Below, in pieces: positions 3,196 to 30,089 of a stretch of 32,459 bases of DNA (positions are counted from its first letter, which is position 1; each line of letters begins with the position of its first letter). The DNA is taken from NCBI GenBank assembly GCA_009782665.1, contig WRIP01000001.1, positions 1 through 32,459 on the forward strand, read 5' to 3'. The notes below the pieces were generated by a model that was not told where the DNA came from, did not search any database, and saw nothing but the letters and a program-made list of their open reading frames with translations. The DNA comes from Oscillospiraceae bacterium. GTDB taxonomy: Bacteria; Bacillota; Clostridia; Oscillospirales; Ruminococcaceae. Made by a program: the position numbers and the translations under genes.

Positions 3196-6100
3196 TCATT
3201 CGGAGCGTAACGCTTCAACAGGTGCTCTACGAGCTGCAGCAGATGCAGGAATCAAACCGGCAATATATGTCAACGTCATACTTATGATTACGAGTATAAC
3301 CGGTATCCCCGGCGGCATGATAACCAACCTTACGATTCCGAGCAGGTTATTCAGAATGATATTTGCAACTATGACAATAAGGGAAGTAATGAGTACTCCT
3401 ATAACCCCTGCAGTGAATCCGATTATTAGTGTCTCAGCATTGAAAACAAGTCGGATATTACCTTTACTAGCACCTACAGCTCGTAAAATTCCTATTTCTT
3501 TTTTCCTTTCGAGGACAGAAATGAAGGTAATAACGCCTATCATTATTGATGATACAATTAGCGCAACCGAGACAAAGGCAACCAGTGCATAGCTGACCAT
3601 ATCGATTATGTTGGTAACTGAGGACATCATCAATCCGACCATATCGATGAAATGTATCACTTTTTCAGGCTCATCATTTTCTTCCATACTCGCGTTATAT
3701 ATGTCCAAAATATCCAGCATTCTTTCCTTTGCTTCAAAGCTTCTCGGATATATATCAATCTGTGAAGGGATATTTACATCGGCATATCCCAGTTTTCGTA
3801 AATTCTGTTCATAGTCAGTCACCGATGGATTCATTATTGACATAATGAGATCATAGATTTCATCCTCACCTATTTCCATTTTAAATGCATCTGCCAGAGT
3901 TTCACCGTTGAACGATTCCATTGAGTCTTTCATTTTTACGGAAATCTCTTCAAATGTGCTTTGAATGGTGCTGGCAATTTGACCGGTAACAGCACTCATT
4001 GCAGCTTCCATAGTTTTAGGCAGTTCCGACATAGATTCTTTCAATGCCTGTCCAATTTGAGACGAGAGATTTTGCATGGCATCTTGAATGGCCGTTTCAA
4101 TTTGTGAAGACACTGCATTCATCATACTCTCCATGGCAGATTGCATCATGCTTTGCATTGCACTTGCTAAAGCTGCTTGCAATTGCTGTTGTACTGCCTG
4201 AACCACCTGTGTCATATATGCCGAGGTAGCCTGCATCATATACTCGGTCAACGCCGTTATTAAGGTTCCACTCAAATCTGTTGTTTGAAGCACATCCTCA
4301 AGTAGATTGTTTATCATTTCTTGTGTTTCCGACAGAGTAATATATTCAGTAAATACCGTCAATATCTCTTGCGGTGTTGTTGCACCAGGTGAGGCTGATT
4401 GCAGGTAATCCATGAAATCTGACATGATTAGATCAAGTATACCGGTAAGAGTACCGGGAGGCAGGTTGAGTTGAGTTGCCAAGGAAATGAGTAGATTATC
4501 AATATCGAACTGCGGAGGAGGTATGTTTGAGAAGTCTAACGTAATGTTACTAAAATCAATGTTTCCCATATCAATACCGCTAAAGTCAATATTACTGAAA
4601 TCCAAACCTTTTAAATCGAGGCCACTGAAATCCATACTTCCGAAATCGATATCCCCAAAATCTATGGCACTGAAATCAAAACTTTTGAAATCCAAATTGC
4701 TGAAGTCCATGCCGGAAAAATCAAACCCGGATAATGCATCTTCGAAGTCGAGTGTATTTCTGAACAGCTCTTCATCTACCGATATGATTTTTGAAAAATC
4801 AAATTCATGATCGGGATTATCTCTTTCATCCTCAAACGTTCTGCCTGACAGTATATTAATATCCGGATGAGCCAACTGTTCTTTCACCACATGATTACTT
4901 CGCACTTCCTCCATCAGATGAGTTATGAGCTCCGGTGTGTAGTTGACACCCATTGATAAAATTGTAGCGGTAGCATCTTCATTTGGTTGCACAATACCTA
5001 CAATCTTAAGATCTAAACTGTTTTTTATTAATTTCTTCATGAAGCCGGTATCGCCGGATTTATCTACCCATACGTCATACAATTGATCATATTGATACCA
5101 CTCAGCCGGATGTACGACCTTAAAGTACAAACTCATAAAGGTATCGTACGAATAGATCCCTTTCCCTTCAGATACTTCTATTTCAATATCGGTAGCATTT
5201 CTGAAAGAGTCAATCATCTGTCTCATTTCATCCCGATCGCGTACACCCAAGCAGAATAACATATAGTCAGTAATACTGTTATTACCTCTGAGAACCAGAA
5301 CTGCTTCATCATACCGCTGAGGCCAACGTCCCGCCAAGACATCATATTGAGATTCATAAAGATCCGGTTCATTGGGCAACTCTGAAAAAGCATTCATGTT
5401 ACTCATGATTAATCCGCTGGATGCATCACCGCTTCTCATACCTCTCATACCACCGAATACCGAATCCGGGTTAATCTGATCTATCCCTGTTGATGTATCT
5501 GCAATGAATATTTGCGGTGTAATATCATACTTATAGTGTACTGTACTGACATATTTTGAAATAGTCTGCTCATTCTCTTCCAAGTACTTTTTCAGACTCT
5601 CTAGATCATTCGTAGTTTGGGTAGAAAACAAAGTCTTCATGATATTCATTTCACGAACCCCGTCTATGGGTTCTGCTTCCAGCATCTCGCGTCTTACCTC
5701 CGAACGCATGTTCTCCCCGTCATCATTGTCCGATATGATATCGGACAAATCAAAACTCTGAGTTTGAATGACAAGCGGATATACGCTGAGGGTATCTTCT
5801 TCAATACCTCTGATATACTCATTAATCCCATTTGAAAATGCAAAAATTGTCGCAATTCCAATGATTCCTATCGAACCGGCAAAAGCAGTCAAGAATGTAC
5901 GACCTTTTTTTGTCATCAGATTAGAGAATGAAAGCGCGACTGCAGTAAAGAATGACATCCGTGATTTGCGTGTTTGGCGTCCTGTAGACCAATCTTCTAC
6001 TACTGGCTCATAAGGATTTGAATCTGAAGCGATTTTACCGTCTACGAGGTTGATAGTGCGATTTGCATATTGATGCGCCAACTCATTATTATGTGTGACA

Positions 6101-6684
6101 ATTATAACCAATCGGTCTTTTGCAATCTCTGTAAGCAGTTCCATCACCTGTTTGCTTGTAGTTGTATCGAGAGCTCCAGTGGGTTCATCTGCTAACAGTA
6201 TTTCAGGATCATTAATGATGGCCCTGGCAATCGCAACACGTTGCATCTGACCACCGCTGAGTTGCCCGGGTTTCTTTTTCATGTGATCTTCCAACCCGAC
6301 TTCTTTTAATACCGCTATTGCACGTTGACGACGTTCTCTCTTCGATACACCGCTCAAGGTTAAAGCCAACTCAACATTGGCAAGAACAGATTGGTGAGTA
6401 ATGAGGTTGTAGCTTTGAAATACAAACCCTATACGATTGTTCCGGTATGTATCCCAATCACTATCTTTGTATTCTTCGGTGGAAACATTATCTATTTCCA
6501 AGTCTCCAGAATCATATCTGTCAAGACCTCCGATAATATTGAGCATTGTGGTTTTCCCTGAACCGGATGGACCTAATATGGCTGCAAACTCATTATCTCG
6601 AAATGCAATCGAGACTTCATCTAAGGCATCTTGTGTAAAACCAGCAGTTGTATATGATTTCTTGATGTTTGTTAAACGTAGCAT
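3196..6684 (-). CDS. Fused ABC ATPase plus MacB/FtsX-type permease, 1162 aa, with a very large repeat-containing extracytoplasmic domain
   Basis: The N-terminus has Walker A GPSGSGKTT, signature LSGGQMQRVAIARA, Walker B LLADEPTGALD and H-loop VTHN. A first TM follows (FLTAFAGSIGIIGIATIFAF), then a roughly 740-aa ectodomain. The C-terminus is an FtsX-type 3-TM bundle (...ERKKEIGILRAVGASK...AARRAPVEALRSE). AAGGAAA RBS. The stop is TGA. Confidence 0.92.
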   Translation of the reverse strand: MLRLTNIKKSYTTAGFTQDALDEVSIAFRDNEFAAILGPSGSGKTTMLNIIGGLDRYDSGDLEIDNVSTEEYKDSDWDTYRNNRIGFVFQSYNLITHQSVLANVELALTLSGVSKRERRQRAIAVLKEVGLEDHMKKKPGQLSGGQMQRVAIARAIINDPEILLADEPTGALDTTTSKQVMELLTEIAKDRLVIIVTHNNELAHQYANRTINLVDGKIASDSNPYEPVVEDWSTGRQTRKSRMSFFTAVALSFSNLMTKKGRTFLTAFAGSIGIIGIATIFAFSNGINEYIRGIEEDTLSVYPLVIQTQSFDLSDIISDNDDGENMRSEVRREMLEAEPIDGVREMNIMKTLFSTQTTNDLESLKKYLEENEQTISKYVSTVHYKYDITPQIFIADTSTGIDQINPDSVFGGMRGMRSGDASSGLIMSNMNAFSELPNEPDLYESQYDVLAGRWPQRYDEAVLVLRGNNSITDYMLFCLGVRDRDEMRQMIDSFRNATDIEIEVSEGKGIYSYDTFMSLYFKVVHPAEWYQYDQLYDVWVDKSGDTGFMKKLIKNSLDLKIVGIVQPNEDATATILSMGVNYTPELITHLMEEVRSNHVVKEQLAHPDINILSGRTFEDERDNPDHEFDFSKIISVDEELFRNTLDFEDALSGFDFSGMDFSNLDFKSFDFSAIDFGDIDFGSMDFSGLDLKGLDFSNIDFSGIDMGNIDFSNITLDFSNIPPPQFDIDNLLISLATQLNLPPGTLTGILDLIMSDFMDYLQSASPGATTPQEILTVFTEYITLSETQEMINNLLEDVLQTTDLSGTLITALTEYMMQATSAYMTQVVQAVQQQLQAALASAMQSMMQSAMESMMNAVSSQIETAIQDAMQNLSSQIGQALKESMSELPKTMEAAMSAVTGQIASTIQSTFEEISVKMKDSMESFNGETLADAFKMEIGEDEIYDLIMSIMNPSVTDYEQNLRKLGYADVNIPSQIDIYPRSFEAKERMLDILDIYNASMEENDEPEKVIHFIDMVGLMMSSVTNIIDMVSYALVAFVSVALIVSSIMIGVITFISVLERKKEIGILRAVGASKGNIRLVFNAETLIIGFTAGVIGVLITSLIVIVANIILNNLLGIVRLVIMPPGIPVILVIISMTLTYIAGLIPASAAARRAPVEALRSE
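4556..4735 (-). repeat. Twelve in-phase 15-nt tandem units encoding pentapeptides (F/M/L/I)-D-(F/L/M)-(S/G/K)-x inside the ABC ectodomain
   Basis: Plus-strand units share the core nnnGAAATCnAn (for example gccactgaaatccat, acttccgaaatcgat, ggcactgaaatcaaa). The minus-strand translation is FDFSG MDFSN LDFKS FDFSA IDFGD IDFGS MDFSG LDLKG LDFSN IDFSG IDMGN IDFSN. Confidence 0.9.
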
Positions 6685-7432: not shown

Positions 7433-8092
7433 ATGAAACAATATATGTATGCAATCTTTGATCTTGATGGGACATTGCTTGACACTGCTGAAGATCTGGC
7501 TGATTCAGTAAATCATGCCTTGACTCTGTCTAATCTTAATCAGCGTACACTCGAGGAGATTAAGCGGTTTGTCGGGAACGGCATAGCCAATCTTATCTCT
7601 CTTTCGGTCGGTAACGATGTATCCGAGGATACATACCAAAAAGTATTATCTGATTTCAAACAACACTATGCTTCAAATATCGCAAACAAGACTAAACCGT
7701 TTGACGGAATAATAGAGCTGCTTACCGCACTCAAAGAACACTCCGTTTCGGTTGCGGTATCTTCTAACAAATATCAAGCGGGTGTAGAAGAGTTATGTGA
7801 GTTATACTTCAAGGATCTTTATACCGCCGCGTTCGGAGAAAGGCCGAACGTACCTAGAAAGCCCGATCCCTCCATCGTATATACTGCTATAAGACAGCTG
7901 GGAGCATCATCTGACCTTACGCTATATATCGGTGACTCAGAGGTGGATGGTCAGACAGCAAAAAACGCCGGCATTGACTTTGTCGGAGTTTCCTGGGGGT
8001 TAAGACCTATTGAACTACTCATCGAGAGCGGTGCGATGGCAATAGTCGACCGGCCCGAGCATCTTTTAGCTTTTTTTGAGCCTTCCCTATAG
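7433..8092 (+). CDS. HAD-superfamily hydrolase, phosphoglycolate-phosphatase-like
   Basis: 219 aa. HAD motif I is FDLDGTLLDT, motif II region is VSSNK, and the C-terminus has a GDSEVDGQTAKNAG (GDxxxD) motif. GGAGAG RBS. Confidence 0.82.
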   Translation: MKQYMYAIFDLDGTLLDTAEDLADSVNHALTLSNLNQRTLEEIKRFVGNGIANLISLSVGNDVSEDTYQKVLSDFKQHYASNIANKTKPFDGIIELLTALKEHSVSVAVSSNKYQAGVEELCELYFKDLYTAAFGERPNVPRKPDPSIVYTAIRQLGASSDLTLYIGDSEVDGQTAKNAGIDFVGVSWGLRPIELLIESGAMAIVDRPEHLLAFFEPSL

Positions 8093-8698
8093 GGTGAAGA
8101 TCCTTCCAGTCAGGCTATAGATAGCCATTGCTAAACCTGCCAGATACAGTAATGTAACCGGCAACCCTTTGAAGGCGGCAGGGATATCACGACTCTGCAA
8201 CTTACGCTGTCCCTCCACTACATATATGATAGCAAGGGTGTATCCGATTGAGCTACCTATTGAGTAGACTATCGTCTCACTTAGTGTCATCTGCTCAATA
8301 CTCGACAGCATTATGACACCGAATACCATACTGTTAAAGGTCGCTGTGGGCATCGCCTCAGCGGCTTTTCCGATATGTTCATACGGAATAATTTTTATCG
8401 CAGTTATGAATACCAGAAGATATATCACCGACATAACCAATACCAATATCAACACACGGAAGATGGTTGCGTTTTCGATTCGATCGATATACGAGTGATA
8501 TATAGAGTAGTATATGACACTGCTTAAGGCCGTAGTCAATGAGAGCAGAATGCAGAAGATGACGGTGCTGCGTACATTGTCGACCAAAGAAATGACTCTA
8601 GACAAACCCATTGCGCGGGTAAAGACGACATTCTCAATCGTGATTGCTGCTAAAATTATCAGCAGATAATCTCCTAATATATTACCCATGTTACCCAT
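8087..8698 (-). CDS. RnfA/NqrE-family membrane protein, cysteine-less variant
   Basis: 203 aa, polytopic. The C-terminal DIPAAFKGLPVTLLYLAGLAMAIYSLTG matches the RnfA D(V/I)P.PF.G..I.LI.AGLM..AF.GFSG signature. The conserved LG(L/I)CP and TNCAVLG motifs read MGLSR and FNSMVFG. Confidence 0.8.
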   Translation of the reverse strand: MGNMGNILGDYLLIILAAITIENVVFTRAMGLSRVISLVDNVRSTVIFCILLSLTTALSSVIYYSIYHSYIDRIENATIFRVLILVLVMSVIYLLVFITAIKIIPYEHIGKAAEAMPTATFNSMVFGVIMLSSIEQMTLSETIVYSIGSSIGYTLAIIYVVEGQRKLQSRDIPAAFKGLPVTLLYLAGLAMAIYSLTGRIFTL

Positions 8699-8715
8699 GT
8701 TTGTTCCATTCTCCG

Positions 8716-9399
8716 CTATATTGTTTCGTCTGAGTCTTCGGTAAACTGTGTGTCCTTGGCATAACGATACCGTGCGCGTTTAATTAAACTGACTAAAAAC
8801 TGAAAAACTGCACAGAAAGCTGCAGCTATTATTAACCCTCCGACAGCGGTGGTAAATATCGGGAAAGGTGCCGGTGAGATAATCGGGCTACCCCACAAAC
8901 TACCGTGACCGAGTAACTCACGCAGAGCACCCACAAGGAATACCGACATAGCAAATCCCACCGAAGATAGTATGCCACTCAGCAGACAGCTCCAACCCTT
9001 TTCTCTTTGTGGTATCTCTGCCGGTGAGGTTATGATTGAATCCACTACCAATATGGGCAGATAGATACCCATCGCTGCAACACTCATGCCAAACAGATTG
9101 GTGATTACCGATAACCCGGGTATATATATGAGGGCTGCAACTACCGAATACACCATTATTCTGAGTTTCTGCGGGATGGTACCTATCAGTATATTACCGA
9201 TGAATCGGGTAGGTATAAGTAGGATAGGTATCATAATCGACAGGATGGTCGCATTACGCAGGGTAGTCGCTGCTCCGATAACCGGAGTAAGCGCAAGCCC
9301 TTCGATGAACACCGGATTATTTACTAAAATCCGATCGTTTTTCAATCGTTCCTCGGTGCTGCGTATCAATGACTGATTTGATTTAGGGTTTCTTCTCAT
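8716..9399 (-). CDS. RnfE/NqrD-family membrane protein, lacking the conserved cysteines
   Basis: 227 aa. NNPVFIEGLALTPVIGAATT and GIYLPILVVDSIITSPAE...LVGALRELLGHGSLWG parallel RfnE-type N(N/P)..LV.LLG(L/M)CP and GIFIPLIV(T/V)NCI(V/I)(V/L)GRAEAF...G.(L/I)REI(I/L)G.GT(L/I)F(D/G), the canonical RnfE motifs. The ATGA overlap couples its start to the upstream rnfD-like stop. Confidence 0.8.
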   Translation of the reverse strand: MRRNPKSNQSLIRSTEERLKNDRILVNNPVFIEGLALTPVIGAATTLRNATILSIMIPILLIPTRFIGNILIGTIPQKLRIMVYSVVAALIYIPGLSVITNLFGMSVAAMGIYLPILVVDSIITSPAEIPQREKGWSCLLSGILSSVGFAMSVFLVGALRELLGHGSLWGSPIISPAPFPIFTTAVGGLIIAAAFCAVFQFLVSLIKRARYRYAKDTQFTEDSDETI

Positions 9400-10334
9400 C
9401 GGGTACCCCCGGTTTTAGGCGGAAACTTTCGGTCGAGATATGGGGAAATCGGGTTGATTACTACTACAGCAAACACTACACCCATCTGATATATTCCGTA
9501 ACGTCCGAATAACATAGCTGTCAATCCTAACAGCACACCATAGATGAGCTTGGCTTTCGGATTAACTGGAGAGGTGACAGGTTCTGCGGCTATATATACC
9601 GCTCCGAAAATAAGAGTGTCAGATAAAACTTCGTAGAGCACCGAATAGAGTCTGCTGATCTCTAACCTCGGGAAACAGAACGCAAATACGACAATCGCTA
9701 GCAGGTACATGAACGGGGTATGCCAAGTGGTTACCTTACAGGCAATCAAAAAAACGAGTATAGCCAGTATTACAAGGCTATATGAAGCACCTATTGGACC
9801 GGGATGGTTACCCAGCAAAAAATCTACCTTATCAATGTTGCCGGGTATACCACCAGCTTTTATGGTTTGTGAAGCCGATTCGAATAGTTGAATCGATTCA
9901 TCGAACTTTAGCCCGATATTGGTGAAGGGTTGAGGATAGCGGAATATCTCGGTAGGCCAACAGATAGCCGAAGCCATAAACCCGAAGGCAGAAGGATGCA
10001 GGATACATCCGGTATAGTCTCCGAATGCATGTTTGATAAACACCGTTAGTATACTTCCACAGAGTACAATTGAGTATCTGACCGTAGCCGGTAGTAACAG
10101 CACAAAGATTACCGTAAACATAATGCTGCTCATATCCTGTCCGTTATAGCTACGTTTTCTCATTAGTGCTACCAAGAGGTCGCTGAGAACCGCTATAACT
10201 ACGGCAATGAGCAACAAAATAAGCGGCCGAATACCATAGAGATAAACCGTTATTCCGATGAGTGGAACAACCGAAAACAGAAAGGCAGAAAACCGTTTAT
10301 ATATGAAAGGTGTCGATTGTTTTTTCGATGGCAT
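9396..10334 (-). CDS. RnfD/NqrB-family membrane protein, divergent
   Basis: 312 aa, polytopic. The C-terminal ...LIFGAVYIAAEPVTSPVNPKAKLIYGVLLGLTAMLFGRYGIYQMGVVFAVVVINPISPYLDR resembles RnfD ...MLGAFF(I/M).TDPVT(S/A)..T..G..IFG...G.L...IR..G.YP.GV.(F/Y)(A/S).LL.N...PLID. Confidence 0.75.
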   Translation of the reverse strand: MPSKKQSTPFIYKRFSAFLFSVVPLIGITVYLYGIRPLILLLIAVVIAVLSDLLVALMRKRSYNGQDMSSIMFTVIFVLLLPATVRYSIVLCGSILTVFIKHAFGDYTGCILHPSAFGFMASAICWPTEIFRYPQPFTNIGLKFDESIQLFESASQTIKAGGIPGNIDKVDFLLGNHPGPIGASYSLVILAILVFLIACKVTTWHTPFMYLLAIVVFAFCFPRLEISRLYSVLYEVLSDTLIFGAVYIAAEPVTSPVNPKAKLIYGVLLGLTAMLFGRYGIYQMGVVFAVVVINPISPYLDRKFPPKTGGTR

Positions 10335-10351
10335 AAACTACCCCAGTAATA

Positions 10352-11008
10352 TCATTGAATAGCGGCATGTCTTAACTTCTCTATTGCCGCCATATAGTTA
10401 TCTGTTTTAAAAATACTGCTGCCTGCCACCAGCATATTGGCACCGTGAGCAATAGCGATTGCTGCTGTCGTCATATTGATCCCACCGTCGACCTCGATAA
10501 GCAGATTCAATCCTCTCTCGGTTGCTTGCTGCTTAATGAAGGTGATGGTCCTGGTCGTCTGAGGTAGAAAGGTTTGACCTCCAAACCCTGGTTCCACCGT
10601 CATTACCAATACCAAATCTATCAGTTCAAGATAGTCAACTATCTCAAGCGGAGAGGTAGATGGCTTAATAGATATCCCCACCATGATACCGCAAGCCCTT
10701 ATCCGCTCAATGGTTTTTATCACATCTGATCTAGACTCTAGATGAAAGGTCAGGATATCCGCTCCGACATCGGCAAACGCATCGATATATTCTATGGGAT
10801 CCGAGATCATCAGATGTACATCGTATTTAGCGGTTATATGGCTTGACAATGATTCGAGTACCGGTATTCCGAAAGATATATTCTTTACGAACTGTCCGTC
10901 CATCACATCAAAGTGAAGAAAGTCGGCACCGGCCTGTATGACCAAGTCCGCCTCTTCACCGAGTCTGCTGCAATCTGCTGCAAGTAATGAAGGTGCAATA
11001 TATATCAT
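10352..11008 (-). CDS. rpe: Ribulose-phosphate 3-epimerase
   Basis: 218 aa. IAPSLLAADCSRLGEE...GADFLHFDVMDGQFVKNISFG...HLM...MTVEPGFGGQTF...VDGGIN are canonical Rpe motifs. Confidence 0.93.
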   Translation of the reverse strand: MIYIAPSLLAADCSRLGEEADLVIQAGADFLHFDVMDGQFVKNISFGIPVLESLSSHITAKYDVHLMISDPIEYIDAFADVGADILTFHLESRSDVIKTIERIRACGIMVGISIKPSTSPLEIVDYLELIDLVLVMTVEPGFGGQTFLPQTTRTITFIKQQATERGLNLLIEVDGGINMTTAAIAIAHGANMLVAGSSIFKTDNYMAAIEKLRHAAIQ

Positions 11009-11132
11009 CTGTCATCCTTACCGATGTTATAAAAATACTGCTCAAGCAGCTATATCTACTGTGTGAGTAATGTCTAGACTATATCAAAATTGTTGAGCTA
11101 AGGCAATAACGAAACGACTGAGCAAGATACTT

Positions 11133-12302
11133 CTAGTGTAGATATAGTCCAGTATCTTCGATGAGCTCCAGCTCAAATTCGATATATCTGTCCTCTATAG
11201 GACGATATATCTGTACAACCACCGTTTCGGTATACTGCGATAATAGTTGCTCAAATAACTCTACCGAATCGACTGATTCTTCCGATACTGATAGAATAAT
11301 ATCTCCGATCATCAAACTCTCCTCCGGTTGTCGGTTTAATGCAGGTAGATCTGCAACATACAAACCGACAGGCCATTGTTTGGGACGAGAGACAACCTCG
11401 CTTATTGACTCAACGAATAATCCTAATGTATATCGATCGTTGACATATCCGTGTTTGATGATGTCATCAATGATACCTCTGGCATCATCGACCGATAAGG
11501 CATAGAGCATATTCAACGAATCATCGGCAACAGCGCATCTGAACCCAACTATCTGCCCCAGATAGTTGACGATAACCCCTCCACTACATCGATCGGACAC
11601 AACTCTATCGGTTGCGGTGAGTTTCAAATAGGAATACCCGGCTTCAGTCATGATATATCGACCCTCTGAAGCACCTAGTAATCCCTGAGAAATATTCGGG
11701 ATCTCTCGTTGTCCCAACCCGATATACAAGCATCCATCACCCTCCTTCATACCACCACTGCCAAAGGAAGCCGTTCTGAGATTTTGTCCGTCGATTCGAA
11801 GGACACAGAGATCCGTCTTGAGATCATACCCGATAACGGTAGCCATGTATTTCCTACCGTCATAGAGTTCCACCTCTATGATACTCTCATCTCGGATCAC
11901 ATCGACCGAGGTGATGATATATCCCGACTCATCCATCACCACACCAAAACAGGTGACATCAGCTATGGGGAGACCTCCCTGATTGTATGTTTTTACCTTA
12001 ACAGATGCTAGCAGCACGGTGCGTGAGATATCCTGTATCATATGGTCGTTTACCGGTGAATAACTGTATTCATTGTCGACAGGTGCTTCCCTCACCAATA
12101 GCGTTCCTAGCACATAGTCGTCCGGAAGGCTTCTACTGCCGATACCTCGCCCGTCGATGAACTGTTTGAGCAACGAGCCCATCACCACAACCGCACCGGT
12201 CAGCAGCACTAACAACATCAGACCGAATCCTAGTATTGCAAAATTCAGACTTCTGCGACCCATTGTTCCCTCATCGGTTTTTTGATCTTTTATATCGTCC
12301 AT
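11133..12302 (-). CDS. Membrane-anchored HtrA/S1C-like trypsin-fold protein with a C-terminal PDZ-like region; the catalytic His appears to be absent
   Basis: An N-terminal TM (LNFAILGFGLMLLVLLTGAVVV), then a protease-like core: GYIITSVDVI...DLKTDLCVLRI...DRCSGGVIVNYLGQIVGF. The start is ambiguous. The ATG at 12302 lies 1 nt after the kinase stop; a GTG at 12332 would overlap the kinase by 29 nt and has no SD. Confidence 0.75.
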   Translation of the reverse strand: MDDIKDQKTDEGTMGRRSLNFAILGFGLMLLVLLTGAVVVMGSLLKQFIDGRGIGSRSLPDDYVLGTLLVREAPVDNEYSYSPVNDHMIQDISRTVLLASVKVKTYNQGGLPIADVTCFGVVMDESGYIITSVDVIRDESIIEVELYDGRKYMATVIGYDLKTDLCVLRIDGQNLRTASFGSGGMKEGDGCLYIGLGQREIPNISQGLLGASEGRYIMTEAGYSYLKLTATDRVVSDRCSGGVIVNYLGQIVGFRCAVADDSLNMLYALSVDDARGIIDDIIKHGYVNDRYTLGLFVESISEVVSRPKQWPVGLYVADLPALNRQPEESLMIGDIILSVSEESVDSVELFEQLLSQYTETVVVQIYRPIEDRYIEFELELIEDTGLYLH

Positions 12303-12303
12303 A

Positions 12304-13836
12304 CTAACGTCTGCTTCCTTTTCTAATTCCACGCGATATTCTTCGCATTAGGCTTACCTTTTGTTGATTTAGTTCCTCTACTGTTCGCTCTTGTGTTTGG
12401 TAGGATTGTGACGTTCCGTTCTTAAAAATCACGGTGAACTTTGTAAGTCCGTCAGGTTCACTTTGTACCGTTATACTGCCGTCCATCTTCTCGACCAACG
12501 TCTTGGTTATATATAGACCTAACCCTGAACCACCGGTATCCAAACTCCTAGAAGAATCTAGTTTATAGAATCGGTCAAAAACCTTCTCCAGCTGATCCTT
12601 CGGTATTCCCGAACCGGTATTGCCGATGACAATTTCGGTGGTATCGGCTTTCTTAAACATTTCCACCGATATCATGCCGCCTTCGTTGGTGTACTTCACC
12701 GCATTATCCAGTAGATTATATATGACCTGATGCAGCATATCTTGATCACATTGTATAAACCTGGCATCGACATCCAACTCCTTGATCTCGATTCGTTTTT
12801 CTGCGATACGTTGTTCCATGTTCCACATAATGTCGAGTACAGTATCCCAAGCATTGTGGTTTGTAATGTTCATCTCCTGCTGTTCGGCTTCTAATCGAGC
12901 CACAATGAGCAGAGAGGAGGTGAGTCGTGCGAGTCGTTTCACCTCTTCCGATATGATGTACAGGTAGTGACTTTGTTCCTTCTGCGGTATCGTTCCATCC
13001 AGTATTGCATCGATATATCCGGCAATGGTAGTCATTGGGGTCCTAAGCTCATGTGACGCTGCCTCAACGAAATTGCGGCGTACATTCTCAAGTTCTGATA
13101 CCGAATATGCCATGTTGTTGAATACCTCTGCTAGCATTCCAATTTCATCACCTGCTACCGGTACTTTAACCCGAACCGAGAAGTCTCCAGCACCGAATTT
13201 ACGGGCAGCTTCCGAGATTTCATTGAGTGGTTTGGTCAGCATTCGGGTAGCGTAAAATACGATGATGAATGATAACCCGAATGCGGATGCGGACGAAAAC
13301 AGAAACATCATAATAATCTGATAGAGGAAATCAAACAGTTCCTCCAGCGATTTCGAGATGAAGAGATATCCGCGTATGGTTCCGTCCATCACAACCGGAC
13401 ACCCGTAGGTATAACTGCTCTCGGTGGTAAACACCTCCATATATCCTACCGAAAAGAATTCTCCTTGATTTAGTATAGTTTCGCGTATGACAGAGGGGAT
13501 GGATAGGCTCAGGTGTGAACACATACCACCCTCACTGCAGACCTCAATTCGACCGTCGATATCACAGAACAGTACCGATACGCCCGTAGTACGGTGTATC
13601 AATTCGAATTCTTTCTCGAGTTCGTTTCGGGTTAGAAATCCTTTGTTCCGATCGTAGTTGCTTACCGTTACCTCTATTCCTTTGGATGCCACATTCATCA
13701 GCTGTCTGCGGTTGTCATCCCGAAAATACTGTGTCGCAAAGAACAGTAATACCACACCCAGCATAAAGATACAGATAAGCATAGTTACTGCATAAATGGA
13801 AAAGTATTTTCTGAACAGACTCTTGGGTTCTCTCAT
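12304..13836 (-). CDS. Sensor histidine kinase (2 TM, extracytoplasmic sensor, HAMP, HisKA, HATPase_c)
   Basis: 510 aa. The H-box is FVEAASHELRTPMTTIAGY, the N-box LLDNAVKYT, and the G-boxes GNTGSGIP and GGSGLGLYITK. A HAMP-like LTKPLNEISEAARKFGAGDFSVRV follows TM2. Confidence 0.92.
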   Translation of the reverse strand: MREPKSLFRKYFSIYAVTMLICIFMLGVVLLFFATQYFRDDNRRQLMNVASKGIEVTVSNYDRNKGFLTRNELEKEFELIHRTTGVSVLFCDIDGRIEVCSEGGMCSHLSLSIPSVIRETILNQGEFFSVGYMEVFTTESSYTYGCPVVMDGTIRGYLFISKSLEELFDFLYQIIMMFLFSSASAFGLSFIIVFYATRMLTKPLNEISEAARKFGAGDFSVRVKVPVAGDEIGMLAEVFNNMAYSVSELENVRRNFVEAASHELRTPMTTIAGYIDAILDGTIPQKEQSHYLYIISEEVKRLARLTSSLLIVARLEAEQQEMNITNHNAWDTVLDIMWNMEQRIAEKRIEIKELDVDARFIQCDQDMLHQVIYNLLDNAVKYTNEGGMISVEMFKKADTTEIVIGNTGSGIPKDQLEKVFDRFYKLDSSRSLDTGGSGLGLYITKTLVEKMDGSITVQSEPDGLTKFTVIFKNGTSQSYQTQERTVEELNQQKVSLMRRISRGIRKGSRR

Positions 13837-13844
13837 AGTGGTAT

Positions 13845-14519
13845 CTACTTCAGCTCAAACTTATAGCCTACACCCCATACGGTTTTAAGGGACCATTGGT
13901 CAGATACATTCTCAAGTTTCTCCCGTAACCGCTTAATATGCACATCCACCGTTCGACTATCGCCGTAGTACTCAAATCCCCAGACTTCATCCAACAGTTG
14001 ATCACGGGTGTATACCCGGTTGGGATTCTTAGCGAGATGATATAGCAGCTCTAGTTCTCTAGGGGGTGTTTCAATAATGATTCCGTCCACCTTTAGTTCA
14101 TAGTTGGTGATATTAACCGACAGTTTATCATAGTTGACTACCCCGCTGTCTTCGATCACCGAGCGTCTCAACACCGCTCTGACCCTTGCGATGACCTCTT
14201 TCATATTGTACGGCTTAACAATATAGTCATCCGCGCCGAGTTCAAGTCCCATTACCTTGTCGAAAGTTTCGCCTTTAGCCGTTATCATGATTATCGGTAG
14301 ATTACTGCGTTCGCGCATGAGACGGCAGACTTCCCAACCATCCATGTTGGGCATCATAATGTCCAGTAGGACCATGTCCGGTTGTTCGGTTTTGAACAAC
14401 TCAACTGCCTGTAGTCCGTTGAAGGCCATAATGACGGTATATCCTTCCTTCTCCAGATATAGTCGCAACAGTTCACAGATATTCTTTTCATCATCAACCA
14501 CAAGAATTTTTGTATTCAC
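13845..14519 (-). CDS. OmpR/PhoB-family response regulator
   Basis: 224 aa. The receiver has ILVVDDE...DMVLLDIMMP...ITAKG, and the winged-helix output has ...TRDQLLDEVWG...RTVDVHIKRLREKL...IKTVWGVGYKF. GTG start with AAGGAGG 7 nt upstream. Confidence 0.95.
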   Translation of the reverse strand: MNTKILVVDDEKNICELLRLYLEKEGYTVIMAFNGLQAVELFKTEQPDMVLLDIMMPNMDGWEVCRLMRERSNLPIIMITAKGETFDKVMGLELGADDYIVKPYNMKEVIARVRAVLRRSVIEDSGVVNYDKLSVNITNYELKVDGIIIETPPRELELLYHLAKNPNRVYTRDQLLDEVWGFEYYGDSRTVDVHIKRLREKLENVSDQWSLKTVWGVGYKFELK

Positions 14520-14721: not shown

Positions 14722-15807
14722 ATGAAGATAGGTATTGTGGGATTGCCTAATACCGGAAAAACTACACTGTTTAATGCGTTGACCGGCTCGGGTGCGATCG
14801 CGGCAGACTATCCCTACAGCACCATCGAACCCAATATTGCGACGGTAGATGTACCCGATCCCAGGTTAGATTTTCTGGCTCAACTCTACTCTCCCAAGAA
14901 AATCACCCCTGCGACTATAGAGTTCGTGGATATTGCAGGATTACCTAGAGGTGCCTCCAAGGGGGAGGGTTTAGGCAATCGATTTCTTTCATATATTCGG
15001 GAAGTTGATGCGGTGTTACATGTCGTCAGGTGTTTTGAGAATACCGAGCAGATACCCTGTGATCCGCTAGGAGACATAGAGATTGTCGAGATGGAGCTAA
15101 TTTTAGCAGATATTGAGATTGTAGAGCGACGATATCTCAAGCAGGAAAAGGTTTCCAAGACCGACCGTTCTCTCATACCGGAGGTGAATTTCCTAGCACG
15201 ACTGCTTCAGCTTCTAGCGGACGGCAAAACCGCAAGAGAGCTTACTGTCGTTTCCGAGATGGAAGCAGCTATTCTCAAAGAGATGCCACTGTTATCGACA
15301 AAGCCCATCATATATGTGGCTAACATATCGGATGATATCTACTGGAACGGTGAACCAGGTGAAGGTGTGTATGTTAAGCAGATTGAAAGGTATGCCGCTT
15401 CACAAAAAGCTGAGGTCATCGAGATCTCTGCGTTGGTTGAACAGGAATTCGTTCAGCTCGGTGAAACCGAACGAGAAGAATTCCTCAAAGAAATCGGACG
15501 TCAAAGAGGTCTGGACCGACTCATACGACAGAGCTATGGGTTGCTCAAACTCATCTCCTTTCTCACTGCAGGCAGTCCCGAAGTGCGTGCCTGGACCATA
15601 ACCGAAGGGACTAAAGCCAGAGAAGCTGCCGGAAAGATACATTCGGATCTCGCCAGAGGATTCATACGTGCCGAGATAGTGGCGTTCGAGCATCTCAAAG
15701 AATGCGGGAATATGGCAGCAGCCAAAGAAAAGGGGCTGGTTCGCATCGAGGGTAGAGATTATATCATGAAAGACGGCGATGTCACACTGATTAGATTTAA
15801 TGTCTAA
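14722..15807 (+). CDS. ychF: Redox-regulated ribosome-binding ATPase YchF
   Basis: 361 aa. MKIGIVGLPNTGKSTLFNALT-type P-loop (here GLPNTGKTTLFNALTG), ...EFVDIAGL..GAS.GEGLGN.FL, and a C-terminal TGS-like ...AWTI..G..A..AAG.IHSD...GFIRAE. Confidence 0.96.
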   Translation: MKIGIVGLPNTGKTTLFNALTGSGAIAADYPYSTIEPNIATVDVPDPRLDFLAQLYSPKKITPATIEFVDIAGLPRGASKGEGLGNRFLSYIREVDAVLHVVRCFENTEQIPCDPLGDIEIVEMELILADIEIVERRYLKQEKVSKTDRSLIPEVNFLARLLQLLADGKTARELTVVSEMEAAILKEMPLLSTKPIIYVANISDDIYWNGEPGEGVYVKQIERYAASQKAEVIEISALVEQEFVQLGETEREEFLKEIGRQRGLDRLIRQSYGLLKLISFLTAGSPEVRAWTITEGTKAREAAGKIHSDLARGFIRAEIVAFEHLKECGNMAAAKEKGLVRIEGRDYIMKDGDVTLIRFNV

Positions 15808-15824
15808 CCAAGAAAGGTAGATAG

Positions 15825-16502
15825 ATGAGAATAGGGATTATATGTGCATTGGAAGAGGAGATATCATTGCTTCGTGACTTCTTTGTATACGAGGACATGC
15901 ATCACTGCGGAAGTATTGAGGTAACCGAGAGCTCAATGTTCGACAATCGACTGTTTCTGACGGTGAGCGGTGTAGGAAAAGCCTGCGCGGCCGCAGCCGC
16001 TCAGGCTCTCATCTCGGAGTTAAAGTGCGATATTATTCTAAACACGGGTTTAGCCGGTAGCTGTAGCTATTCGCTGGTACCCGGAAGCGTGATACTAGTA
16101 TCCTCAAGCTGCTATCACGATTTTCATGCTGCCGGGTTCTCTGGTCTAGATAACAATACGGTTTTCTATTCTGACAACCGTTTAAATGCCAAAGCCAAAG
16201 AGGTGTTTAAATCTGAACGTTTTGATTATGTTACCGGCAAGGTGGCAACCGGTGATATGTTTGTGTCTTCCGGCTCGCAAAAAGATGATATTAAGAATCG
16301 AACCGATTGTCTATGTGTAGATATGGAGCTGGCTGCTATTGCTCACATTGCATATCTAAACAATGTACCCTATCTCTCGTTGAAGATAATCTCGGACAAT
16401 GCCGATGAAACAGCACTCTCGGATTTTGTCTTTAATCTTGAACGATATGCAGCCTACTGCTCTCATTTCATATATACCCTGATAAAGGACATATCCTATT
16501 GA
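15825..16502 (+). CDS. mtnN: 5'-methylthioadenosine/S-adenosylhomocysteine nucleosidase
   Basis: 225 aa. MRIGIICALEEEI...SGVGKACAA...NTGLAGS...ATGDMFV...VDMELAAIAH...LKIISDNADE matches the Pfs/MtnN pattern. Confidence 0.88.
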   Translation: MRIGIICALEEEISLLRDFFVYEDMHHCGSIEVTESSMFDNRLFLTVSGVGKACAAAAAQALISELKCDIILNTGLAGSCSYSLVPGSVILVSSSCYHDFHAAGFSGLDNNTVFYSDNRLNAKAKEVFKSERFDYVTGKVATGDMFVSSGSQKDDIKNRTDCLCVDMELAAIAHIAYLNNVPYLSLKIISDNADETALSDFVFNLERYAAYCSHFIYTLIKDISY

Positions 16503-28083: not shown

Positions 28084-30089
28084 ATGGATTTCAAGGAGTA
28101 TAAACTACGTAAACCTCTGTTTAATCCTGTACCAGTAAATACATATATTTACGGTTTAATTGGAGCACTAGTATTTGTTTCGGTATTTGGATTTCTTCCC
28201 TTGAATCCGATGCGGGATGCTTGGATCATGAACGGGTATGTTGAGGGAGATATAATCGGGCACTACGCCGGGTAGCTTGGCTTTCGCAGTACTCCCTGGC
28301 AATGGCCCTTGGGTTGGGTTCCCTCATTACAGTATCCCATTGGTATTTCAATATCATTTTCCAATTCAATCCCTCTTGTAGCATATATTTTTAAGTTATT
28401 GTCGTTCTGTCTGCCAAACAGGTTCCAGTATTTCGGAATATATACTCTACTTTGCTATATTTTACAAGGAGTTGCATCCGGTAAACTCGTCGGTCTGTTT
28501 ACCACAAATCGCACTCAGATCTATCTGTCAACGGTATTATTCTGTTTTTCTCCGATACTAATGGAAAGAGCTTTTCGACATACAGCGTTAGCCTCACACT
28601 ATCTGATACTATTTGCCTTGTTCATATATTTTAAGGCTAAGAAATACGGTGAACCGATTTCCCCCGGTTATATTCTTCTGTCAGCAGTTTCCATTCTTAT
28701 TCACCCATATTTTCTGCCGATGATTTTAGGGATACTATTGGCTGATATCATAGACAATACGGCTGTGAGACAAAAGCCCTTTCGCTCATTTATAGTTTTC
28801 GTTGCATCGATCGGATTGACCTTTACAGCGGGATTATGCAGCGGAATCTTTATGTTGGGAGAATCCCAAAGATCATCCGGGTACTGATATTTTTCCATGA
28901 ACCTTAACGCTGCAATCAACCCACGCAGTCTCGGTGATTATAGATGGTCATTGATAATTCCGCCAATGCGTCAGGTACTTGGAAATTATGACGGGTTCAA
29001 TTATCTGGGACTAGGAGTTTTGGTCGCCTTGGGAATCAGCTTAATCGTGATGATAAGGAGAATATCATCAACCGATAGTCGTCTGTTCAAGCTGATAAAA
29101 AAGTATCTCGGCATCATCCTTGTATCAATATTCTTCATCATATTTGCACTCAGCAATACCCTTACTGCAGGAGGACATATTATCTTTGAGTATTCACTAC
29201 CAAAGTTAATAATGTCTCTTTTTTCTCAACTTCGTTCAAGCGGCAGGTTGTTCTACCCGGTATACTATCTCATATTCCTATTGGTGTGTACCACAGTAGT
29301 CAAATATACAAAAAACCGATGATACTGATATCACTGGAAATAACAATCCAGATTTTCGATATGGGAGGAGCTCTTATCCAAAAGCGAGCTTCCTTCTCCG
29401 ATGACAGTATTTTTGCAGCTTCCCGTTCGAATTTCATTAATCGGATAGCATGGGAATTACTGACGGAGACGAATATATCTTCAATAACAGCGGTTGATTT
29501 TGAAAGAGATAATGTTATTGCAGCTTATGCTGCAAAAAACAACATTACTACCAACCTATTAATCTCCCCAAGAGGAAAAACAAACGAACTCAATCAAATC
29601 AGGATGAATACCTTCATCAATATTTTGGAAGGTAATCCGTTAGCAGAGAACACTCTGTATCTGATCACAAAAACCAACCCCTTGTCACCGCTTCTACCAT
29701 ACCTGATTGCGGAAGACGCAAGAATATTTGATCTCGATGAGTATTACGGTTTCTCAGTGATCACCAGTATTTCCGCTCTGAGTGGACGGGATTTTAACGA
29801 TATCGTCATAACGGTTGCTGAAATAACAGATGATTATTGGAGCTATGGAACCAACCATACCATGGGATATATAGCTGTTCCCGATACCGAGTTTAATCGA
29901 TACGCAATACAAAAGGCGAAATATGTAGAATCTGCGTTTGAAAAACTCTCCATAATCGGCTACCGCATTGATGACGCTTACAGTGTATTGGTAATTGAAA
30001 CCATCCGGAATAAGGATCTTAAGGATTTTGAGTATCCATACCCATTTTATATCCGATTTACATTACCAAGAACAAACGAAGGAGTATAA
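28084..30089 (+). pseudogene. Disrupted gene for a large polytopic DUF6311-like membrane protein (two in-frame stops plus one frameshift)
   Basis: Track ORFs 27946-28275, 28309-28887 and 28897-29322 are all in the same frame. They are separated only by TAG (28273..28275) and TGA (28885..28887). ORF 29286-30089 continues in the -1 frame across an A6 run (29310..29315). Read-through gives one coherent protein: ...GDIIGHYAG*LGFRSTPWQWPLG...FQYFGIYTLLCYILQG...SSGY*YFSMNLNAAINP... The likely start is the ATG at 28084. Confidence 0.6.

Follow-up and report, generated by a model that had tools for sequence, protein, structure and literature searches.

We analysed a stretch of 32,459 nucleotides from an Oscillospiraceae bacterium (assembly GCA_009782665.1, contig WRIP01000001.1, positions 1-32,459 of the forward strand; this whole stretch is called the window below), in which three packed genes encode membrane proteins homologous to the RnfD, RnfE and RnfA subunits of the Rnf complex. 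This trio is a large, selected, cofactor-less offshoot of the membrane core of Rnf. Judged from their sequences, its proteins cannot hold the electron path that runs through the membrane in Rnf, and the D-E-A unit is kept by selection. The most likely function would then be translocation without redox chemistry: we give about an even chance (roughly 0.5) to the reading in which the trio is an Rnf-derived membrane complex that, lacking redox cofactors, acts as a gradient-driven translocator of cations (Na+ or H+) or of solutes coupled to cations.

The three proteins map one-to-one onto RnfD, RnfE and RnfA, and the folds are kept. Aligning them to Pfam profiles, as a preliminary description of this DNA had proposed, assigns the D-like protein (9396-10334, minus strand, 312 amino acids) to PF03116 with 173 bits, and the E-like (8716-9399, minus strand, 227 amino acids) and A-like (8087-8698, minus strand, 203 amino acids) proteins to PF02508 with 85 and 56 bits. 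All NCBIfam scores, on the other hand, fall far under their cutoffs: 128 versus 207 for rnfD (TIGR01946), 65 versus 213 for rnfE (TIGR01948) and 71 versus 229 for rnfA (TIGR01943), the best matches being RsxE and rnfE, both under cutoff, for the E-like protein and rnfA for the A-like one; the Nqr equivalogs score 42-54 against cutoffs of 245-414. We therefore regard the three as true but strongly divergent homologues of the Rnf subunits. The AlphaFold2 model of the D-like protein is confident (predicted local distance difference test, pLDDT, 87; predicted template modelling score 0.87), and Foldseek places it closest to RnfD (template modelling score, TM, 0.83-0.85; 0.84 for 9eri_D), then to NqrB (0.73-0.75), and then to UT and Amt channels (0.40-0.46, with probability up to 0.99). 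The E-like model (pLDDT 71) retrieves RnfE and NqrD with TM of 0.6-0.7 (0.63/0.72 for 9eri_E).

What these proteins do not keep are the cofactor sites. The intramembrane [2Fe-2S] cluster of Acetobacterium woodii is ligated by C25 and C113 of RnfA and by C25 and C108 of RnfE (PMC11889175). Reading the corresponding columns from HMMER alignments to the solved Rnf and Nqr chains 9eri, 7zc6, 8ahx and 7xk3, we find no cysteine at any of the four in the window. The A-like protein has GLSR where canonical proteins have GICP, with Ser33 (codon TCT, 8600-8602, minus strand) in the C25 column, and FNSMVFG for TNCAVLG, with Ser123 (codon AGT, 8330-8332, minus strand) in the C113 column. The E-like protein has LALTP for LGMCP, with Thr38 (codon ACT, 9286-9288, minus strand) in the C25 column, and VVDSIIT for VVNCIIL, with Asp120-Ser121 (9037-9042, minus strand) in the columns of RnfE N107 and C108. 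The replacement of all four cysteines, claimed in the preliminary description, thus stands for the window, but most near relatives keep the cysteine at RnfA C113. Indeed, the AGT codon of Ser123 is a single nucleotide change from TGT, and the closest relatives nearly all have a TGT or TGC cysteine there, suggesting that the complete loss of the four ligands may be recent in the lineage of the window.

The covalent flavin mononucleotide (FMN) site of RnfD is missing as well. The loop that carries the acceptor in A. woodii (T156, in D-T-V-T-T-A-T) is variable, its counterpart being residues 139-158 of the D-like protein (9861-9920, minus strand), and four alignments equate the acceptor with four different residues of the window protein: E146, F151, L150 and S153. 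Because the aligned residue shifts with the alignment, the presence of the motif itself is the test that does not depend on it. The D-like protein of the window has no D-x-x-[ST]-x-A-[TS], nor does any of the clade members (missing in 54/54); most canonical RnfD and NqrB proteins do. The loss of the flavinylation motif is therefore as first described, although the E-S-A-S-Q-T-I register proposed for it is only one of several possible.

At the level of sequence, the loss of the electron path is family-wide and comprises the cluster ligands, the FMN-threonine motif, the residues that sense RnfB, and RnfG and RnfB themselves. For the residues, we took their roles from the structure and mutagenesis study of A. 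woodii (PMC11889175) and counted them in the clade to which the trio belongs (n=55 for A, n=37 for E). The RnfA C25 column is Ser in 52/55; the RnfA C113 column is Cys in 36, Ser in 12, Val in 5 and Thr in 2, Ser being the residue of the window and also of a distant subclade. In the E-like proteins, Ala or Thr stands in the C25 column and Pro, Ser or Gly in the C108 column. Other lineages keep only the first E-like cysteine, or none. When we scored 151 E-like sequences, that is, the top-ranked representatives plus the window, 126 had no cysteine at the two RnfE columns, 24 had one and a single sequence had both. Such a mosaic of single relic cysteines is what would be expected after the loss of the cluster, once the constraint on individual ligands is relaxed. 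The FMN-bearing T156 of RnfD is not conserved in the clade, and the residues of RnfA that sense the RnfB cluster (K32, R154 and E158; PMC11889175) are replaced, the first by Asp and the other two by Gln. A series of residues invariant in canonical RnfD is also replaced (N120, R129, W97, T248, G197, G238 and E282), and the clade has D-like invariants of its own: Glu235, Arg223, Asp52 (for Glu) and Ala116. The riboflavin-contacting positions D249 and N123 are kept conservatively, as Glu or Asp and as Asn, His or Gln, respectively.

The remaining subunits are missing from the surroundings too. Among the open reading frames (ORFs) of at least 100 amino acids in the 32 kb of the window, none contains a domain of RnfC, RnfG (FMN_bind), RnfB or ApbE, which agrees with the absence of RnfC, RnfG and RnfB beside the trio reported before, and no NqrA-, NqrC- or NqrF-type ORF was found within it. 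The D-like protein is a single PF03116 domain with no NAD-binding fusion. Across 34 related loci, an FMN_bind query taken from the P0060 fusion found no RnfG-like ORF at E <= 1, RnfB-like ORFs were absent, and an RnfC-like ORF was present in one of the 34. The place of rnfG in canonical operons, between D and E, holds no gene in any locus. The only ferredoxin-motif ORFs in the 34 loci are PFOR, an aldo-keto reductase with an Fe-S domain, and a QueG-like protein.

The trio is a large paralogous family of Oscillospiraceae-type Clostridia, with many members from gut metagenomes. Word-index searches returned close relatives from Oscillospiraceae metagenome-assembled genomes (MAGs), 15 for E, 31 for D and 32 for A, which carry at most automatic names. 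A scan of one genome per species gave 19 loci, all in uncultured Oscillospiraceae or Bacillota MAGs, of which one is a Pygmaiobacter sp. An exhaustive search with a profile of the E-like alignment reaches 2870 representative clusters when the cutoff is E <= 1e-3, and 125 when it is tightened to E <= 1e-30. Intact orthologous trios occur in more than 100 loci, down to ~30% identity, and the ratio of nonsynonymous to synonymous substitution rates (dN/dS) is 0.07-0.23 for the three genes among pairs whose dS is not saturated (0.03-0.12 for the neighbouring rpe). In a neighbour-joining tree, which carries no support values, all cofactor-less D proteins, the distant ones included, form one clade apart from NqrB and canonical RnfD, that of A. 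woodii among them. A separate clade is thus seen for the D subunit; the preliminary description had suggested looking for one among homologues of the A/E pair.

The family is also recognizable by its gene order. In the window, the D and E genes share an ATGA stop/start overlap, read in the sequence (9396-9399, minus strand), the E and A genes are separated by 17 nucleotides with a GGAG site, and the 3' end of the A gene overlaps by 6 nucleotides a convergent HAD hydrolase gene (7433-8092, plus strand); the three ORFs lie exactly at the coordinates first given. The unit starts with rpe, the gene of ribulose-phosphate 3-epimerase (10352-11008, minus strand; PF00834, 222 bits), 17 nucleotides before D. 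The order rpe-(mecA)-(truncated RnfC-like)-D-E-A-(DUF4015), where the genes in brackets are not always present, recurs in more than 100 loci; wherever the upstream sequence reaches far enough, D is preceded by rpe on the same strand, and the D/E and E/A junctions are mostly overlapping or nearly so. In five loci, mecA lies between rpe and D on the opposite strand. The truncated RnfC-like gene defines a sister subfamily with the order rpe-(mecA)-C-D-E-A-DUF4015, found in one complete genome (LT629952.1) and in 80 metagenome loci (L034-L113), many of them from the human gut. The membrane proteins of this subfamily show the same losses: an E-like cysteine at either column in 0/67, the RnfA C113 cysteine in 18/62, and the FMN motif of D in 0/79. 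The idea of a stand-alone trio with D-E-A-only synteny consequently needs to be narrowed. D-E-A order without a gene between D and E is general, and the trio of the window does stand alone, but this is lineage-specific, since an RnfC-like gene accompanies the trio in the sister subfamily and a further gene, encoding DUF4015, does so in many members. The simplest history is that a duplicated rnf operon lost G, B and the membrane cofactors, and then also C in the lineage of the window.

What could such a complex do? We propose that the E-like and A-like proteins would form a heterodimer together with the D-like subunit, no longer being part of a ferredoxin:NAD+ oxidoreductase. This dimer would still alternate access, moving a cation (Na+, H+ or perhaps a divalent metal) or a small solute, while the D-like subunit, with its fold related to Amt and urea channels, may be a partner or provide a second pathway. 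Transport would be driven by gradients instead of electron transfer. The RnfA-E dimer of true Rnf has been likened to alternating-access symporters and RnfD to Amt and urea transporters (PMC12174285), and reduction of the cluster has been proposed to draw Na+ into an adjacent buried site (PMC11889175). At this site the family shows a change: RnfE N107, next to the ligand C108, is Asp or Glu in 33/37 clade members, and in 74/151 of the wider E-like set, where all 74 are free of cysteine. A carboxylate at this position could supply a fixed negative charge where the reduced cluster attracts Na+ in a true pump, and its location at the former cluster site amid Ser, Thr and Asn is typical cation-site chemistry, which favours a cation translocator.

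Several residues of the proposed Na+ path point in the same direction. RnfE R67 and E115 form the ion pair of Na+ entry, and the R67A mutation abolishes autotrophic growth (PMC11889175). Both are kept, as Arg80 (9160-9162, minus strand; Arg or Lys in 37/37) and Glu128 (9016-9018, minus strand; Glu in 33/37) of the E-like protein. The gate residue L22 of RnfE is kept in 35/37 and V106, at the Na+ site, is kept too. On the A side, N112, beside the cluster, is kept in 50/55, T110 (Na+ path) is Thr, Ser or Ala, and P107 (Na+ path) is mostly kept. Hence, the non-electron-transferring role put forward in the preliminary description agrees with the sequence-level loss of the electron path, and the ion or solute pathway given there as an example is consistent with these residues but is only inferred. 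A divalent metal is a conceivable substrate, given the Cys/Asp/Asn/Ser site of most members; Rpe is an Fe2+/Mn2+-dependent enzyme. A more specific version of the proposal, in which a redox ion pump was turned into a cofactor-free transporter or channel, with a fixed Asp/Glu replacing the cluster, an Amt/UT-like D subunit and a whole family mis-annotated as a second Rnf, seems to us tentative, with odds of perhaps one in three. We know of no non-redox relative of the RnfE/A fold. If this version were true, gut Clostridia would abound in a transporter family that has so far escaped recognition and is routinely mis-annotated. Less likely, the family could preserve features of the ancestral transporter behind Rnf and Nqr.

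A number of observations weigh against a gradient-driven translocator. RnfA E88, which belongs to the proposed ion-pair network, is Phe in the clade, and even for true Rnf and Nqr the identity of the Na+-carrying subunit is contested (PMC12174285). In about half of the RnfC-containing subfamily, RnfE R67, N107 and E115 are Ala, Ala and Ser, so the argument of a retained Na+ path fails for the family as a whole. The negative results on partners in the window cover its 32 kb, and partners encoded elsewhere are possible; the tree, as said, lacks support values. Finally, the frequent DUF4015 neighbour and the response regulator, kinase and HtrA-type protease upstream point at least equally to the cell envelope.

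This last point leads to the best of the alternatives, to which we would give something like one chance in five: a cell-envelope module, in which D-E-A would be the platform or transporter for a membrane-anchored DUF4015 protein standing in RnfG's place and acting on wall or surface glycans, for instance by exporting or flipping precursors, or by anchoring and regulating a hydrolase. DUF4015 with an anchor to the membrane at its N-terminus (PF13200, putative glycosyl-hydrolase-like) is encoded directly 3' of A, on the same strand, in 20/34 loci (e.g. L008:3996-5174, L027:9319-10608 and L031:12367-13497), and it also follows A directly in most non-truncated loci of the RnfC-containing subfamily. 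The domain occurs fused to a YkyA domain, as polysaccharide deacetylase domains do (PMC12700454). Upstream of rpe in the window lie genes for a response regulator, for a histidine kinase of the HAMP/HisKA type and for an HtrA-type protease (Trypsin_2/PDZ), and YchF and PNP are encoded divergently (11133-14519, minus strand, and 14722-16502, plus strand). YchF, the response regulator, the kinase and often the protease recur upstream in many relatives, very distant members included. On the other side, the gene next to A in the window and its closest relatives is not DUF4015 but the convergent HAD gene or an EamA transporter gene; genes for lipid carriers or glycosyltransferases are not among the conserved neighbours; the glycosyl-hydrolase likeness of DUF4015 is only putative; and the response regulator, kinase and protease are not conserved as neighbours in distant loci.

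It is rather improbable, in our view, that the trio serves as an alternative membrane arm, assembling with RnfC, RnfG and RnfB from other places in the genome into, for example, a form of Rnf that is inactive, uncoupled or regulatory. This possibility gains some weight from Faecalibacterium duncaniae A2-165, for which a figure legend lists rnfDEA (CG447_09840-830) and rnfCDGEAB as two putative proton-gradient-building rnf operons (PMC10781979), as well as from the kept subunit folds and the RnfC-like gene beside D in the sister subfamily. The rnfDEA operon has the same three genes, comes from an Oscillospiraceae-type gut bacterium and probably belongs to the same family; unlike us, the authors take it as an energy-conserving Rnf, and the missing ligands go unmentioned. 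Supplementary expression and proteome data for Faecalibacterium list only the canonical RnfD, RnfG and RnfA. As for the RnfC-like protein (~349 amino acids, between rpe or mecA and D; L027:5984-7033 and L034-L113), it aligns to residues ~114-431 of RnfC and keeps both 4Fe-4S motifs, but its N-terminal domain is missing and its FMN loop has DERDGVLLYEKL in place of the GMGGATFPTHVKL of RnfC. With the RnfB-sensing K32, R154 and E158 of RnfA turned into Asp, Gln and Gln, and with neither [2Fe-2S] ligands nor the FMN threonine, an electron path from RnfB through RnfG to RnfD has nowhere to run.

Still more doubtful is a residual redox function, in which a centre would be held by the RnfA C113 cysteine together with Asp, Ser, Thr or Asn, fed by the RnfC-like Fe-S subunit and with a flavin bound non-covalently in D. 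The 36/55 members with that cysteine, the conservative retention of D249 and N123 and the two 4Fe-4S motifs of the RnfC-like protein speak for it. Against it, the window lacks cysteine at all four columns and has no RnfC-like gene; the single cysteine differs between lineages or is absent, as in a relic and not as in a conserved site; and many invariants of the flavin pocket of RnfD, including N120, R129 and T248, are replaced. That the trio is a functionless, decaying remnant of a duplicated rnf operon, as the lost ligands, the missing C, G and B genes and the low NCBIfam scores might suggest, can be dismissed in view of the intact ORFs in more than 100 loci, the low dN/dS, the clade's own invariant residues, the confident RnfD and RnfE folds and the conserved translational coupling, in line with the retention argued for in the preliminary description.

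Compared with known systems, the trio is closest to Rnf (RnfABCDGE; 9eri, 7zc6, 8ahx), from whose order rnfC-D-G-E-A-B it differs by the removal of C, G and B, and with which it shares several proposed Na+ entry and gating residues of RnfE and RnfA. It departs from Rnf in failing the NCBIfam cutoffs, in having neither the ligands of the cluster nor the FMN motif, in not being encoded together with C, G and B, in lacking RnfG and RnfB throughout the loci examined, in the replaced RnfB-sensing residues, in its separate D clade, and in its fixed position beside rpe and often beside DUF4015. NqrB, NqrD and NqrE of the Na+-NQR are the next-best matches of the trio in both structure and sequence, but that complex has the membrane [2Fe-2S] cluster, both covalent FMNs, riboflavin, NqrC and NqrF, none of which the trio has. 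The two-subunit Nqr/Rnf-like complexes (Meheust et al. 2021; bioRxiv 10.1101/2024.03.13.584918) likewise have an RnfD-like subunit in which the flavinylation threonine is not conserved. In them, however, RnfD-like is fused to a cytosolic NAD-binding domain and accompanied by a flavinylated RnfG-like protein, with no RnfA/E, the opposite of what is seen here. Amt/Rh and UT channels are distant fold relatives of the D-like protein with no detectable sequence similarity, RnfD being far closer, and this kinship had already been described for RnfD and NqrB (PMC12174285). A literature search on 'Rnf-Nqr domain containing' proteins, RnfD-like proteins and DUF4015 found no functional study; the earlier statement that no function is described for such a module therefore holds in that sense, although a D-E-A operon has been named once, as rnfDEA (PMC10781979).

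These results bear on how genomes are read. Genes of this kind go under the names 'RnfABCDGE subunit D' or 'Rnf-Nqr domain containing protein', and on at least one occasion they were taken for a second energy-conserving Rnf operon. According to the sequence evidence, the trio is unable to pass electrons across the membrane, and it ought not to be listed as an Rnf complex. It is instead a conserved and abundant membrane module of gut Clostridia, locked to rpe and often to DUF4015. The family also illustrates the stepwise stripping of a respiratory complex, from CDGEAB to CDEA to DEA, with relic cysteines decaying independently by lineage. NqrA offers a parallel: this homologue of RnfC has lost all its cofactors and has nevertheless been kept (PMC12174285). 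Moreover, a natural redox-free version that keeps RnfE R67, E115, the gate leucine and an acid beside the cluster site would be a test bed for alternating access in RnfA/E.

Some features of the loci deserve mention on their own. The upstream block of the window is syntenic with that of relatives even at low identity, and its response regulator, kinase and protease may resemble the WalR-WalK-HtrC layout of Bacillus. DUF1015 is encoded further downstream in five loci, in some of them 3' of DUF4015 (L022, L031-L033); like DUF4015, it does not adjoin the trio in the window. An aldo-keto reductase with a C-terminal 4Fe-4S ferredoxin domain lies just 5' of rpe, on the opposite strand, in eight loci (L009, L010, L012, L015, L016, L024, L025 and L027; L027:2094-3236, minus strand). 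A ferredoxin-motif ORF of ~265 amino acids 5' of rpe (family f22) was considered as a candidate RnfB and turned out to be QueG-like. In another locus (L005:8388-9025), the rpe match is split over two overlapping segments in different frames, which may be an assembly frameshift or a disrupted gene.

D-like proteins of a distant subclade (L008-L020) bear Lys/Glu-rich C-terminal tails of 70-220 amino acids that are probably disordered (L009:8793-10001, L008:1647-2789 and L015:1294-2502 are examples) and end in a conserved acidic peptide, e.g. ..LDIISRAEDEIDQVDFSTQTID... A similar tail of 370 amino acids, ending in ..LDDILNDLPD, is found on the E-like protein instead in L030 (L030:8001-9704). A tail with a conserved acidic end suggests a tethered docking peptide for a cytoplasmic partner; the window proteins have no such Lys/Glu-rich tail. 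These tails also account for the 275-700-nucleotide gaps between D and E in distant loci, where a hidden RnfG had been sought. Long E-like representatives of 400-570 amino acids, examined as possible D-E fusions, have a single Rnf-Nqr domain plus extensions. Some E-like representatives (P0135, P0113, P0131 and P0138) have N-terminal extensions of 190-340 amino acids, one of them with a partial response-regulator receiver domain, and these may be real fusions or artefacts of gene calling.

In the window itself, a weak candidate promoter 5' of rpe (11078-11106, minus strand) was called by consensus match alone, and the number of promoter-like sites in the region is not above shuffled expectation. 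The same scan, whose sites are not clearly above the shuffled background, found no terminator between rpe, D, E and A. Searched with gathering thresholds, the window and six loci gave no riboswitch or other RNA, and neither did 7900-11300 at E <= 1; PADLOC gave no matches to anti-phage defence families. Elsewhere in the window, a gene at 3196-6684 (minus strand) encodes a fusion of an ABC ATPase with an FtsX-type permease (1162 amino acids), whose central region contains pentapeptide-like repeats of the 'DFS' type in a row and a long segment rich in Gln, Met and Ala. Lastly, the DUF6311 profile is split over two plus-strand ORFs, at 28309-28887 and 28897-29322, which match profile positions 62-209 and 254-303 and may represent a frameshifted or interrupted gene.

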